Positions 2,247-6,212 of a DNA stretch of 10,643 nt are shown here, one piece after another (positions within the stretch are counted from its first letter, which is position 1; the number at the start of each line of letters is the position of its first letter). Origin of the DNA: a virus (taxonomy: Duplodnaviria; Heunggongvirae; Uroviricota; Caudoviricetes); the IMG/VR virus record IMGVR_UViG_2657245521_000002. One strand, written 5' to 3'. A program made the position numbers and the translations under genes. The notes below the pieces were generated by a model. The model was not told the DNA's origin and did no database searches. It worked only from the letters and a program-made list of their open reading frames with translations.

Positions 2247-2599
2247 TACGCCTCCGATGTAACAGTCGTTATTCCATAAAGAGTGTCGATTTCAGCGGAA
2301 AACATGACACGTCGGGTCGTGGTATCCAGCGTCGTATTGAAAGAGAGGATTGATTTAACGCCCTGCGTTTCGAGGATGCGCTTACGGATCGCCAGGTTGT
2401 AGGTTTCCGGCTTCTGCTTACCGAGTACGGACTGGATCCACGGAGTCCCCTCGGTGGTGTCGAGAAACCATTGCCCATACCACAATTCGAATCGCGTTTT
2501 TACCGCCTGCGCCACGGCCTCCGGTGAGTTAATCAGCCAGGTGTCATCACCGCTGCCAAAGGTGTAATCGCCATCGGCGTCTTCACGTCTGTATCGCAT
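2246..2599 (-). CDS. baseplate wedge protein, gpW/gp25-like (117 aa)
   Basis: ATG at 2597-2599 overlaps the spike TGA (TGATG). A 117-aa protein between the spike and J-like genes; size matches P2 gpW (115 aa). Confidence 0.6.
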   Translation of the reverse strand: MRYRREDADGDYTFGSGDDTWLINSPEAVAQAVKTRFELWYGQWFLDTTEGTPWIQSVLGKQKPETYNLAIRKRILETQGVKSILSFNTTLDTTTRRVMFSAEIDTLYGITTVTSEA

Positions 2600-3351
2600 C
2601 AGTTTACCCCGTCGGTACTGCTTCCACCGCGCTGAACACCACCATGAGTGTGCGTATCATCGATTGGCTTGCCGTTAGCCTTCACGCTCCCCAAAAACTC
2701 AACAGCACCAGTGATTTTTGAAGCCACACCAGAAACCACAGACCCCACCATGCCCCCCATCCAGGTTAACAGGCCATGAATGGTTACTTTCTCAGAAAAA
2801 TCAGCCAGGGGGGCAACCACATCAAGCCCCCCCGGAGCGACAATTTTAATTTTCCTGGTATCAGGATTAAGCTCAAAATAGGTGCTGCCGTCGTCACTAC
2901 GCAACTGTGTGGCACTGGTATTAATACCGCTAATCTTCCTAGCCTGCGACTGGGGACCGACAATACAAAACGCATCCGATAAATCATGCATTCTGTCATC
3001 AACCGTCTCCTGTATCCCGCCGCTCTGCCACCAGAAATCAATACAACGATCGGCAAAAACGACAAGACACTCATCCCCAGCTTTTACCGGAAAAGTCAAC
3101 GTACAGCCTCCGCCGCGCGGGAATACCACTGGCACATCCACCAGCAATGGGTAATTTTTGGTAATGCGGTTACCGTCGTTATCCTTTTCAACTGACCGGA
3201 TAGCTGGCTGCACAACCGCCGTCACCGCGTCAGGATCGAATGACTGAATAATGCCAGGCAAGGCGACACGGATCTGGTTCTTTGTTGTTTCCCGTTCAGA
3301 TTTAAATGTTTCGGCAAGATCGCCACTGCGGGTCTGGTCAGTTACTGCCAT
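2599..3351 (-). CDS. baseplate central spike protein (250 aa, P2 gpV-like)
   Basis: ATG at 3349-3351 with GGAG 8 nt upstream. First gene of a V-W-J-I series. The C-terminal tip reads DDTHTHGG (H234, H236; nt 2644-2652 verified), resembling the His-x-His metal-binding apex described for P2 gpV-type spikes. Confidence 0.65.
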   Translation of the reverse strand: MAVTDQTRSGDLAETFKSERETTKNQIRVALPGIIQSFDPDAVTAVVQPAIRSVEKDNDGNRITKNYPLLVDVPVVFPRGGGCTLTFPVKAGDECLVVFADRCIDFWWQSGGIQETVDDRMHDLSDAFCIVGPQSQARKISGINTSATQLRSDDGSTYFELNPDTRKIKIVAPGGLDVVAPLADFSEKVTIHGLLTWMGGMVGSVVSGVASKITGAVEFLGSVKANGKPIDDTHTHGGVQRGGSSTDGVN

Positions 3352-3362
3352 TGGTAGGCTCC

Positions 3363-3392
3363 AAAAAGCAAAAAACCCGCCGGGTGGCAGGT
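3363..3392 (-). terminator. putative rho-independent terminator downstream of the moron cassette
   Basis: Minus-strand RNA would read AAAACCUGCC-ACCC-GGCGGGUUUUUUGCUUUUU: a 6-9 bp GC-rich stem (one G-U pair) with a 4-nt loop, followed by U6 and U5 tracts. It sits in the only sizeable intergenic gap, between the 170-aa stop (3412) and the spike ATG (3351). Confidence 0.5.
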
Positions 3393-3411
3393 TTTATCTC
3401 ATGAAGAATGA

Positions 3412-3924
3412 CTATCGGTGGATAGTATTAAAGTATTCAGAAAGCTGATTATCAGTTATCAAACACAACTGCATCAAATAAATAGAGTATTTCAATAACT
3501 TTTCATCACGAACGGGGGCGGGACGTAAATACTTCCCGCCGTGAAAGAGATTATTTCTTATATACGGGATCTGCTTTAATGCTTCAGCAAGAGAATGAGG
3601 TTCGATTGGAGGTTTATCCTCCCACGAAAAATCATGCCTCTGCTGCTTCACAGGTTGCTGACATAGATACTCAACTGCCCTATCGACATTTCTATTTCCA
3701 GTAGGATATAAAGGCCGCGTATCATCAGTAGCGTAGCGGCTCCAGTCAGCACCGATTAGATAATTTCTACGATCAGTTTTTTTGAAATTAATTCTTTTTA
3801 ACGCATATTCGAAACGCGAAAAATAATTAAAAAACCTTATAACAAGAGTAATATCAATTCCGCCGAGAAGTTCCTGAAAGTCAGGGTCTTGAAATGAATT
3901 CAAAGGATCATCATCAACTGTCAC
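3412..3924 (-). CDS. hypothetical cytoplasmic protein, 170 aa, low GC, with R-x4-H (HEPN-like) motif; moron gene
   Basis: Start (GTG at 3922-3924, or the TTG 7 codons downstream) overlaps the TGA of the 111-aa gene. Hand-counted GC is about 38% over 3421-3900. Residues 123-128 read RNNLFH (nt 3541-3558, verified codon by codon). No signal peptide or transmembrane segment. Followed by a terminator hairpin. Confidence 0.55.
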   Translation of the reverse strand: MTVDDDPLNSFQDPDFQELLGGIDITLVIRFFNYFSRFEYALKRINFKKTDRRNYLIGADWSRYATDDTRPLYPTGNRNVDRAVEYLCQQPVKQQRHDFSWEDKPPIEPHSLAEALKQIPYIRNNLFHGGKYLRPAPVRDEKLLKYSIYLMQLCLITDNQLSEYFNTIHR

Positions 3925-4256
3925 TTGCTGCTCACTTTTTTACACGGGAAAGATCCAATGATTTTCGGCGCGTCCATGCTGTTCTGCAGCAGCTGGACGT
4001 TCAGGAAAGCTTTTCCGTTACGTTTCACAAACTCAAAGCCGTAATTGTTACCATCACGGGAAGGCATCAGGCCCATGTCCATTTTCATGTTTGAATAGTC
4101 ACCATCTTTTCCCAGAAATTTTATCTTCTGTGATGTGACAGTTTCACCGTTAATAACAGTCATTCCGTCACCGGTCATCGTGTAGTTGCCGCACTGAATT
4201 GCAGCCATCGCCGGAGCAGTAACCATCATAACTAACGCCAAACATAACCGTTTCAT
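3921..4256 (-). CDS. small exported protein with Sec signal peptide (111 aa; moron gene, function unknown)
   Basis: ATG at 4254-4256 overlaps the hub-gene TAA (TAATG), with an AGAGGG Shine-Dalgarno 6 nt upstream. The N-terminus MKRLCLALVMMVTAPAMA followed by AIQCG is a textbook signal peptide with an A-x-A signal peptidase I site; there is no lipobox. The mature protein is about 93 aa with two Cys (near the N- and C-terminus) and is Gly/Asn/Lys-rich. Not a tail structural protein. Confidence 0.6.
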   Translation of the reverse strand: MKRLCLALVMMVTAPAMAAIQCGNYTMTGDGMTVINGETVTSQKIKFLGKDGDYSNMKMDMGLMPSRDGNNYGFEFVKRNGKAFLNVQLLQNSMDAPKIIGSFPCKKVSSK

Positions 4257-5320
4257 TAAAGCCCTCTTTCCCTCGCTGATGAGGAAACAAGATCCGCCGC
4301 GCCACGCGCTTCACACATCATATCCATGTACCACGCCTGGCCCCTTGTGTCGCCAGTGTACATAATCCCGCGCACAATATAAACGCCATCCGTTGCGATG
4401 CTGGCAGGCTGCGATGTGGTGCCGCTGAGCGTGATATTTCCGTCCGTGTTCTGGTCGGTGATCTGACCACCAGCCATCGCAATATCGTTGTTCGACAACG
4501 CGGTACGATAGACGGAAGCCTGATCCAGCTGAATGAGCCCGTTAACCCGGATGTTCGGATTAATAAGCGCGCGGACGTTTACGCCGTTACCGATAGTCTG
4601 CTGCGGCATTCCAATAAGCCCGGTAGCGCTGTTGAGCACAATCGCTTCGTGAACATATTCGTTATTCACCACCATCTGGCGCTGACCGTCCACGAATTGC
4701 CATGTTGCGCCACATTGTCCGGCTACGTTATCCATTAGATGCCGCGTCATGCCAAAGAGTACCCGCCCCCGGGGGAATACAGTAGCAGGCATTTCAGGCG
4801 TCAGGCCTTCGGTCGCGCCTTTGGCTTCGAAGTCTTTCATCAGCGCACGGTTCACATCAGCGACCGTGTAACCGGCAGCCAGCGTCTGTGAGGTTATACT
4901 GGTAGCAAAAGCCAGATCAGTATCTGCTGCCTGAATCAGGACGTAGGTATCAACCGGACTGTCTTTTCCTGTGACCGAGTAGCGAATTTCACCGCTGAAA
5001 ATCAGTCCGTAGTTGCGGCCATCTCTCTGGCCCACGTCCGCCGCGTCAACTTCCCGCACGGTCCCTACGTCGCTTGCTGACACCTCCGGCGCGATACCGT
5101 CGTAACCGGCAATCAGACGCACTTTCGAAAACTCCTGCCCGGTAATTCGGTTCACAGTATCTGCCGAGAGGTTATAAATTTTGATAGTCCCTACCCGGGA
5201 CGCGCTGCTGATGTTGAACCAGTCGATCGTAAAGGTGACTTTGAAATCACTTAGCTCAATTCCCTGACCGTTCCCGTCCACAAGCTGCAGCTCGAAATGT
5301 CTCATCCAGTTCTGTGACAT
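4256..5320 (-). CDS. baseplate hub / late-control-D-like protein (354 aa; P2 gpD / Mu gpP family by position and size)
   Basis: ATG at 5318-5320 with GGAG 7 nt upstream. A 354-aa protein in the D slot after the tape measure, U-like and X-like genes. The call rests on synteny and size, not on a verified motif. Confidence 0.5.
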   Translation of the reverse strand: MSQNWMRHFELQLVDGNGQGIELSDFKVTFTIDWFNISSASRVGTIKIYNLSADTVNRITGQEFSKVRLIAGYDGIAPEVSASDVGTVREVDAADVGQRDGRNYGLIFSGEIRYSVTGKDSPVDTYVLIQAADTDLAFATSITSQTLAAGYTVADVNRALMKDFEAKGATEGLTPEMPATVFPRGRVLFGMTRHLMDNVAGQCGATWQFVDGQRQMVVNNEYVHEAIVLNSATGLIGMPQQTIGNGVNVRALINPNIRVNGLIQLDQASVYRTALSNNDIAMAGGQITDQNTDGNITLSGTTSQPASIATDGVYIVRGIMYTGDTRGQAWYMDMMCEARGAADLVSSSARERGL

Positions 5321-5322
5321 GC

Positions 5323-5625
5323 TTACTCCGTTGATACCAGTAAATGGCTGCGACCGCCCAGGTCAGTTTTTGTGGGGTAATCCTGTGTGTTGTCATCACA
5401 GACCACCACCAGCTTAAAACCAAGCCCCATACAGGCGTACTGCGCCAGCAGGTCAGCACCAGTGACGAGAGGAATACCGGAGATTACCGGCTCCCCTCTG
5501 TCGTTCTGCAGGTCCATAATCCAGTACAGATCGCGCCATATGATGCTAATCCGCCAGGTGACACCACCCAGGACGATGCTGAACTGCTGGTTGTCCGCTG
5601 TCAGCGGAATTTCCTGAATTGTCAT
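5323..5625 (-). CDS. small tail/baseplate protein, 100 aa (X-like position between the U-like and D-like genes; no LysM motif seen)
   Basis: ATG at 5623-5625 overlaps the upstream TAA stop and is preceded by a G-rich Shine-Dalgarno; its stop is followed 3 nt later by the next ATG. Assigned as a tail gene only by coupling and position. Confidence 0.4.
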   Translation of the reverse strand: MTIQEIPLTADNQQFSIVLGGVTWRISIIWRDLYWIMDLQNDRGEPVISGIPLVTGADLLAQYACMGLGFKLVVVCDDNTQDYPTKTDLGGRSHLLVSTE

Positions 5626-6212
5626 TAGCCGCCCCCCAGTAATGACGCCACGTTACCCGTGATGCTTTTCAGCAGTGAAGTATCTGGAGGCTTTGTGGTT
5701 TTGTTGCCGCTGTTCTGTACCGCCGACGTGCTGGCCCCTTCCTTCATGTTGGTTTTATCCGCGACGGTAATCTGCTGTGTCCGGGAGATAATGACCTCCC
5801 TCAGGGTGAGGACGGCGGACAGGACGTTTTCGGTTGTCTTGTCCGTCGTCACTTCCAGCGCCCGGATCAACATGTTGCTGTACAGCCGTTTACCGGTTAC
5901 CACATCGAAGGGGATACGGCTTTCCTGCAGACCCAGTAGCTCCTGATACGTCTGCTGAGGACTCAGGCCGAGCAGGCTGGTAGCCGTCAGGTTACTGGCA
6001 AAATCCAGCAATGCGCCGCCACCGGCGAAACCAACCTCCATCACCACTTCTGACGGTTTTTTATAGGCATGATCAGCGACAGCGGCCCCGACCTCTACCG
6101 GATGCTCTGTTATTTCAAGCATATCTGTATGCTTCTCTGAAATAACAACACTGGGAACAATCATTCCTATTTTTCTGCTCTGCTGATGAAAAAGTGTAGA
6201 GAGAATATCCAC
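5625..6212 (-). CDS. tail/baseplate protein, 195 aa (post-tape-measure position, P2 gpU-like by synteny)
   Basis: Start (GTG in the ORF track) overlaps the tape measure stop and is preceded by a GGTGAGGGTGGG Shine-Dalgarno-like tract. Size and position match the U slot of a P2 T-U-(X)-D block. No motif was recognised. Confidence 0.45.
   Translation of the reverse strand: MDILSTLFHQQSRKIGMIVPSVVISEKHTDMLEITEHPVEVGAAVADHAYKKPSEVVMEVGFAGGGALLDFASNLTATSLLGLSPQQTYQELLGLQESRIPFDVVTGKRLYSNMLIRALEVTTDKTTENVLSAVLTLREVIISRTQQITVADKTNMKEGASTSAVQNSGNKTTKPPDTSLLKSITGNVASLLGGG

Follow-up and report, generated by a model that had tools for sequence, protein, structure and literature searches.

The locus between the hub and spike genes

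ORF170 is a candidate phage-defense gene in a 10,643-nucleotide stretch of viral DNA (IMG/VR record IMGVR_UViG_2657245521_000002); we refer to this whole stretch as the window. The window constitutes the tail module of a temperate Escherichia coli myovirus that is SEN34-like (Brunovirus-like). It encodes a contractile tail, and all of its long open reading frames (ORFs) are on the minus strand. Along that strand, the baseplate hub gene (4256-5320) is followed by ORF111 (3921-4256; WP_001551482.1), ORF170 (3412-3924; WP_001551481.1), an intrinsic terminator (3362-3395), and the gene for a gpV-type spike (2599-3351). ORF111 starts with ATG and encodes 111 amino acids (aa); ORF170 starts with GTG and encodes 170 aa. 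The hub protein matches the baseplate hub family phrog_196 (2.3e-88) and Pfam E217_GP41 (5e-05). The spike protein matches the Pfam N-terminal spike domain (5e-44) and Apex motif (1.6e-04).

A sequence-only reading of the window had described two small, overlapping genes at 3412-4256 between the hub and spike genes. The coordinates, the overlaps, and the GC values were as claimed. The hub TAA overlaps the ORF111 ATG (TAATG), and the ORF111 TGA overlaps the ORF170 GTG by 4 nucleotides (nt) (GTGA). RefSeq lists each product as "hypothetical protein" with boundaries identical to ours. The spike ribosome-binding site (GGAG, 3359-3362) comes directly after the terminator.

The DNA from 2400 to 5400 is 100% identical in Escherichia phage vB_EcoM-689R2, 99.4-100% identical in three sister phage records, and 99.5-100% identical in 25 complete E. 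coli chromosomes. Four sequenced phages carry ORF170 (vB_EcoM-689R2, -606R2, -611R5, and -683R1), so the gene is compatible with phage production. The tail module is present in 353 of 5,426 complete E. coli genomes (about 6.5%), and its relatives are also found in Salmonella, Klebsiella, Yersinia, Pantoea, and Serratia. Among the phages, relatives of the window include Salmonella phage SEN34 (genus Brunovirus), Yersinia phage YP3, and Klebsiella phage Mulock. We compared the window with 15 related loci (L001-L015), consisting of 12 from E. coli chromosomes and those of YP3, SEN34, and Mulock. Hub gene DNA is 85-99.9% identical in the 12 E. coli loci.

A cargo slot with two conserved borders

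We found that the exchanged segment at this locus holds ORF170 only. Homology to the window (blastn) stops at 3382-3397 and resumes at 3933-3937 in almost all of the 15 loci. These breakpoints delimit a variable cassette of approximately 3398-3932, the segment without homology to related tail clusters that have other cargo. A two-gene insert had been proposed previously. Foreign cargo does lie between the hub and spike genes, but ORF170 alone is swapped.

Both borders are conserved. The left border consists of the terminator, the spike ribosome-binding site, and the spike start, in the arrangement AACCCGCC-loop-GGCGGGTTTTTTGCTTTCTGGAGCC..ATG. SEN34 and each of the 12 E. coli loci keep this arrangement independently of the cargo, with loops that vary. 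The right border is the final four or five codons of ORF111, where the encoded protein is conserved to ...GSFPCKK and divergent after that.

No direct or inverted repeats were found flanking the cassette (3200-4400). Insertion of the transposon or integron type was rejected because there are no flanking repeats and the breakpoints coincide with conserved sequence. The same observations favor homologous exchange. The simplest mechanism is probably that cargo is exchanged by homologous recombination via the two conserved borders.

The slot can also be empty. In Serratia fonticola AU-AP2C (L028:3501-3900), the hub gene, an ORF111 homolog, 40 nt, and the spike gene follow one another. The Serratia spacer contains a GC-rich hairpin without a T-tract, unlike the terminator of the E. 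coli loci. It had been suggested that the spike (V) gene might directly follow the hub (D) gene in other tail clusters. The locus is indeed variable, but the arrangement that we found was D-ORF111-V, not D-V.

ORF170 is compositionally foreign. Its guanine-plus-cytosine fraction (GC) is 0.384, compared to 0.477-0.544 in tail genes other than ORF111, and no other 513-nt segment of the sequence reaches so low a value (minimum elsewhere, 0.454; z = -4.8). Its GC at third codon positions (GC3) is 0.339, compared to 0.44-0.64 in eleven structural genes. ORF170 DNA is found in 25 of the 5,426 complete E. coli genomes, in one copy each and with at least 99.8% identity, compared to the 353 genomes with the tail module. 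ORF170 is therefore like a moron in being present or absent among related phages and in its deviant base composition. In another related locus (L025), the hub gene is 95.5% identical and the spike gene 90% identical to those of the window, and the ORF170 homolog is only 56% identical, indicating that cargo diverges or is swapped much faster than its flanks. From these results we are highly confident that the region between the ORF111 3' end and the terminator before the spike gene is a recombinational cargo slot, occupied in the window by a one-gene cassette.

ORF111 and the terminator belong to the backbone

Judged by its conservation, ORF111 is a backbone gene of this tail lineage and not cargo. 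An ORF111 homolog follows the hub gene in 14 of the 15 loci (annotated in truncated form in SEN34), contrary to the earlier view that neither small gene belongs to the conserved tail set; that view held for ORF170, which is variable. One ORF111 allele (97-100% identical) adjoins ORF170, a 257-aa protein, a 190-aa protein paired with YafO, or a DUF4282 protein. The description of a low-GC cassette likewise applied to ORF170; ORF111 is not compositionally foreign. ORF111 has a GC of 0.452 and a GC3 of 0.545, within the tail-gene range for GC3. Its low GC is due to codon positions 1 and 2, that is, to amino-acid composition, and its synonymous codon use fits the tail genes.

The sole locus without ORF111 is that of E. 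coli CREC-544 (L013), in which a 241-aa predicted lipoprotein (LTSC lipobox) is encoded directly after the hub gene (L013:1318-2043). There, homology to the window resumes only within the hub 3' end (window position 4314). Because ORF111 is replaced in this locus alone, it is conserved and probably not essential.

ORF111 is a full-length match (residues 3-109 of 111) to phrog_3443 (2.7e-53), a family without assigned function. The family comprises 410 clusters at 90% identity and occurs in Escherichia, Klebsiella, Salmonella, Yersinia, Serratia, Photorhabdus, Edwardsiella, and others. Some sources label it "Secreted protein". As had been proposed, ORF111 appears to have a signal peptide: its N-terminus, read by eye, is of the Sec type (K2R3, a hydrophobic stretch, AMA|A, and no lipobox), and its homologs are alike. 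The N-terminus varies among homologs, as in signal peptides, and the mature part is highly conserved, with invariant cysteines C22 and C105 and motifs that include INGExVTSQK and LNVQLLQNSMDAP. The AlphaFold2 model is an all-beta meander (pLDDT [predicted local distance difference test], 76). No informative structural neighbor of this model was found. A comparison with the MliC/PliC inhibitors of lysozyme in the periplasm and with Spackle-like exclusion proteins of T4, which would call for a similar fold and for a peptidoglycan hydrolase on the tail as a target, was negative. ORF111 is predicted to be a periplasmic protein of the tail module, and a role in superinfection exclusion would be a guess.

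A degraded prophage (L024:819-4852) contains an integrase gene, small ORFs, a truncated ORF111 homolog, an ORF170 homolog (52% identical), and spike and baseplate genes. It has lost the hub gene and all genes upstream of it.

The terminator is likewise a backbone element and not part of the insert, since it is conserved in the 12 E. coli loci and SEN34 whatever the cargo. It is formed by a stem-loop at 3395-3372 (10 pairs) and a run of T residues, with a folding energy of -19.3 kcal/mol for the 61-nt RNA (z = -3.0). It had been described as the only terminator-like hairpin. It was the strongest in the window, but one of 17 matches to the terminator-like pattern (9.5 +/- 2.8 in shuffled sequences).

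A weak promoter-like match lies inside ORF111 (4118-4147, minus strand; GTGAAA-18 nt-TAAAAT, 9/12), and was not above chance in the scan. It overlies the invariant INGETVTSQK coding motif approximately 190 nt upstream of ORF170 and is the sole candidate for separate transcription of the cargo.

Alternative cargos in related phages

We found at least 11 distinct cargo sets among the 15 loci. In addition to ORF170 in the window, the slot holds single proteins of 257-266 aa (L001 and YP3); a 243-258-aa TPR-like protein followed by a 123-142-aa UPF0332/HEPN-like protein (L006, L007, and L010); a 190-aa protein with a YafO toxin (Pfam YafO_toxin, 4e-17; L008:1298-2288); a DUF4282 membrane protein; a 184-aa membrane protein with a 56-aa peptide; a DUF2335 protein; a 121-aa protein encoded on the opposite strand; a 121-aa secreted protein; a 138-aa membrane-anchored protein (SEN34); or a 148-aa protein (Mulock).

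No known anti-phage system was found among the 10 alternative cargo proteins included in a PADLOC scan; the only matches were weak (HEPN_IX, 2.9e-04; PycTM, 9.1e-04). YafO is a toxin of a toxin-antitoxin system and, to our knowledge, does not belong to an established defense system.

The TPR-like and UPF0332/HEPN-like genes form two-gene modules in other E. coli prophages (L006:1315-2443, L007:1316-2469, and L010:1314-2473), in which the genes overlap or abut. The UPF0332/HEPN-like protein has an invariant R..D-Y and matches Pfam HEPN (1e-03) and, as mentioned, HEPN_IX; no complete PADLOC system was recognized. These modules look like uncharacterized toxin or defense pairs. The lone 257-266-aa proteins resemble the larger partner of these pairs. 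The 190-aa protein upstream of YafO had no family match. This pair fills the slot in several E. coli genomes, and a non-canonical antitoxin is a possible identity for the 190-aa protein.

ORF170 belongs to a large family with a HEPN-type motif

Profile searches had been recommended for ORF170, and its product matched no family in Pfam, NCBIfam, or PADLOC. It does match phrog_19013, which has no assigned function. The name "STY1065/STY2022 family", given by NCBI in one genome, was not traceable to any model in our copy of NCBIfam.

The family is nevertheless very large. A word-indexed search found 27 homologs, and a profile search of 1.84 billion representative sequences found 2,392 relatives at E <= 0.001 (1,787 at E <= 1e-10). 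The family consists of approximately 2,400 clusters at 50% identity, nearly all of them stand-alone proteins of 155-180 aa. When each species was represented by one genome, 415 or more relatives were counted; they come from Proteobacteria, Bacteroidota, Planctomycetota, Verrucomicrobiota, Chloroflexota, Acidobacteriota, and a single archaeal assembly.

The presence of a HEPN motif in the 170-aa protein, claimed in the sequence-only reading, was borne out. A HEPN motif of the form Rx4-6H, with a polar residue after the arginine, is present as R123-N-N-L-F-H128. R-N-x3-H is the canonical form of the HEPN motif. In 171 family sequences that are approximately 30% identical, E39, R123, H128, and G129 are invariant, and K43, N124 (99%), N125, K131, and R139 are at least 97% conserved. 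The family signatures are FSRFEYALK and RNNLFHGGK.

The AlphaFold2 model of ORF170 (pLDDT, 91) had HEPN domains as its best fold matches (HEPN-MNT; PDB 7ae2, 5yep, and 8xdj). These matches were weak, with none significant in a Foldseek search of the PDB, and the model has an extra beta-hairpin and helices relative to HEPN-MNT toxins. Sequence-profile searches of the PDB with alignments of 25 and 143 sequences also gave no significant match; a sub-threshold one placed RNNLFHGGK on RNSVAHGGR (RNxxxHGG) in a protein associated with CRISPR (E = 0.03 and 0.14). Abi_2 was matched by 3 of 25 family members at only E = 0.04, and no profile relationship to a named HEPN family was found. A profile comparison with the UPF0332/HEPN-like cargo of sister phages was also negative (hhalign probability, 0.9%). 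ORF170 likely belongs to the HEPN superfamily, and we predict, with somewhat better than even confidence, that it is a HEPN-type RNase.

Two relatives (P0167 and P0175) are fused to DUF6884, a YaaA-like nucleic-acid-binding domain that has been proposed to bind damaged DNA or DNA-RNA hybrids (PMC11701544). A sensor-effector architecture is possible for these fusions.

Genomic context of the ORF170 family

We found no conserved partner gene for ORF170. Among 80 diverse loci, no neighbor family was common to more than 4. No cognate MNT antitoxin was found beside ORF170, whose neighbors in the window are ORF111 and the spike gene, nor as a conserved neighbor in the 80 loci. A search for a non-coding partner (antitoxin RNA or repeats) gave only a chance-level match in Rfam (E = 0.88) and no repeats in 3200-4400. 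ORF170 is thus like the HepS family in standing alone with no conserved partner, and its close relatives are found in tail modules of prophages.

In Pantoea, Enterobacter, and others, the same slot is occupied by close relatives (50-56% identical), which abut the ORF111 stop codon and have the same terminator after them. Families that recurred among the 148 nearest neighbors in the diverse loci were type I restriction-modification specificity subunits (4), integrases (4), DUF6998 (3), transposases (2), and Abi_C (2). Single occurrences were SIR2, a helicase of the Schlafen type, and a TIR of the Pycsar type. Three distant relatives follow an XRE and ImmA/IrrE pair (L017), share an island with HEPN_AbiV, TIR_2, and Mrr/DEAD genes (L019), or come directly after a 1,257-aa nSTAND3 ATPase gene (L022). 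These raw neighbor counts make an association of the family with defense islands suggestive.

A 30%-identical relative is located among the tail genes of Klebsiella phage ST101-KPC2phi6.1 (L110:3471-3989), an unrelated prophage of the siphovirus type, where it adjoins an oppositely oriented helix-turn-helix gene. Because this prophage is unrelated, the family has been captured as tail-region cargo more than once.

Other genes of the tail module

The remaining genes, all on the minus strand, are those of a contractile tail. Upstream of the hub gene are a neck terminator fragment (10431-10628) and genes for the sheath (9282-10427), the tube (8831-9271), the tail assembly chaperone (8375-8827), the tape measure protein (6212-8218), a Dit-like protein (5625-6212), and the baseplate plug (5323-5625). 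Downstream of the spike gene are genes for a 117-aa protein (2246-2599; "sheath initiator" in some RefSeq genomes), baseplate J (1047-2246), and a DUF2612 wedge protein (370-1050), and then, last in the tail gene order, the start of a fiber gene.

A 156-nt gap (8219-8374) separates the chaperone and tape measure genes and contains a terminator-like hairpin (8336-8317). A Pantoea relative has a 52-aa DUF6889 ORF at this position, and in Mulock a chaperone frameshift product is annotated. The gap is probably the usual programmed-frameshift extension. The listed start of the tape measure ORF is TTG, with an in-frame methionine seven codons downstream (MRNGERIM|NAETIK). The tape measure proteins of relatives have a Pfam SLT (lytic transglycosylase) domain; that of the window had no SLT match at E <= 0.01. 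In vB_EcoM-683R1 (L005; ON470593), the hub and spike genes are each annotated as two split genes, in a region that is 17 nt longer than in the window and 99.4% identical to it. The splits may be due to sequencing or assembly indels rather than biology.

Interpretation of the slot and of ORF170

Our results are consistent with the notion that the slot carries a stand-alone HEPN-like RNase that serves as a prophage-encoded, abortive-infection (Abi) defense, similar to HepS (see below). We give this reading, taken as a whole, about an even chance. ORF170 would be a latent RNase, a single-protein abortive-infection nuclease made from the prophage. A component of an infecting phage would switch it on, and the active enzyme would stop translation, thereby aborting infection by other phages.

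Several results weigh against this reading. No PADLOC model matched ORF170. Many nearest neighbors of the distant relatives are housekeeping genes. The main weakness concerns expression. ORF170 abuts ORF111, leaving no room for a promoter of its own, and no promoter-like site stands out (10 found compared to 12.4 expected). With no intergenic space and no evident promoter, production of ORF170 may be restricted to expression of the late tail operon. Late-only expression would fit a defense gene of a lysogen less well.

Expression is also the basis of the main alternative, which we consider unlikely and in which ORF170 serves the lytic cycle of its own phage, as a late RNase or RNA-binding protein for host shut-off, for counter-defense, or against co-infecting competitors. 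The overlaps of ORF170 with ORF111 and of ORF111 with the hub gene indicate that ORF170 is probably transcribed with the late tail operon. Four close homologs likewise abut the ORF111 stop codon without intergenic space, and no convincing separate promoter was found. However, the family extends across many phyla, mostly outside recognizable phage tail modules, and relatives adjoin type I restriction-modification, Abi_C, and integrase genes. In addition, other cargos of the slot are toxin-like or membrane proteins, typical of morons expressed in lysogens. The terminator before the spike ribosome-binding site would suit, and would make most sense for, slot transcripts that end there in a lysogen.

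It is rather improbable that ORF170 has no defense role, either as a toxin-like addiction module or selfish element or as a degenerate, non-catalytic helical protein that happens to share R-x4-H. The weak fold and profile support for HEPN and the lack of a PADLOC match are consistent with this possibility, as is the YafO toxin module in the same slot of other phages. In contrast, the conservation of E39, R123, H128, G129, and K131 over approximately 170 divergent sequences is better explained by an active site than by a structural string. Furthermore, there is no conserved adjacent antitoxin candidate, and all 25 genomes have an intact gene with 99.8% identity or more.

The original proposal that exported ORF111 and cytoplasmic ORF170 are a dedicated two-gene system, inserted together, is largely refuted and very improbable: the genes do overlap (GTGA), and their order recurs in Pantoea, Enterobacter, and other loci with 50-56% ORF170 identity, but one ORF111 allele is found with four unrelated cargos, ORF111 has native GC3, lies inside the conserved flank, and is retained in the empty slot, and the ORF170 family has no ORF111-like or other conserved neighbor in 80 loci.

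A broader proposal can be made, which we regard as tentative and less likely than not. The slot of SEN34-like prophages might be an unmined defense hot spot with new single-gene and two-gene immune systems. ORF170 might found a phylum-spanning family of solo, HEPN-type Abi nucleases that sense a phage component directly and need no immunity partner. If so, the cargos of the slot (ORF170, the TPR-like and UPF0332/HEPN-like pairs, and the membrane proteins) would be new immune systems. Cargo hot spots of prophages are a productive source of new anti-phage systems, and almost no cargo found here matches known defense models. For a very large family without a name, our analysis offers a testable hypothesis, namely that its members are solo HEPN-like nucleases with R123 and H128 as putative catalytic residues. 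It also indicates that ORF111 should be treated as phage backbone, which changes the choice of what to clone and test.

Comparison with known systems

In the full-text literature that we searched, we found no published description of a slot between hub/ORF111 and spike or of these phages. The slot in this phage lineage is apparently undescribed so far; prophage cargo slots and solo HEPN defense are already known kinds.

The locus resembles the morons of lambdoid phages HK97 and HK022 (Juhala et al. 2000 and Cumby et al. 2012, as cited in bioRxiv 10.1101/2024.10.15.618418). Such a moron is likewise an extra gene of deviant composition between structural genes, with a terminator after it, and is present or absent among relatives. 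The locus differs in that the classical definition includes a promoter belonging to the moron, and none is evident for ORF170. In addition, the terminator here is shared backbone.

The defense hot spots of P2/P4-type prophages are similar in having a fixed position between conserved phage genes and one-gene or two-gene modules, many of them toxin-like or defense-like. The slot shares with them its fixed position and its many alternative cargos. It belongs to another phage lineage and occupies another position (hub/ORF111 to spike), and most of its cargos have no PADLOC match.

Type II toxin-antitoxin systems of the HEPN-MNT type (PDB 7ae2, 5yep, and 8xdj) provided the best structural matches of ORF170 and have an Rx4H-type catalytic motif. 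ORF170 is longer, with the extra beta-hairpin and helices, and has no adjacent MNT gene.

Tha, from Staphylococcus aureus prophages, is a tail-activated HEPN RNase used in Abi-type defense (PMC11087260). Like ORF170, it is a prophage-encoded protein with a HEPN motif. Unlike ORF170, Tha has 301 aa with an extra N-terminal region, and it has an inhibitor, Ith, encoded antisense beside the cI promoter; ORF170 has neither a comparable partner nor a comparable arrangement.

The nearest precedent for the proposed function is HepS, from the Salmonella prophage Gifsy-1 (STM14_3211; PDB 9OIJ and 9OIK), a HEPN protein that has an Rx4H motif and acts singly, without a partner gene (PMC13043305). No homology of ORF170 to HepS (STM14_3211; PDB 9OIJ) was found. 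HepS is made constitutively and is inactive until bound to the tail-tip protein of an infecting siphovirus, whereupon it cleaves tRNA anticodon loops; with it, solo HEPN defense proteins on prophages are already established (PMC13043305). ORF170 is like HepS in being a single, small Rx4H protein whose gene is accessory cargo of an enterobacterial prophage, in lacking a nearby partner or immunity gene, and in that the prophage carrying it is still able to produce virions.

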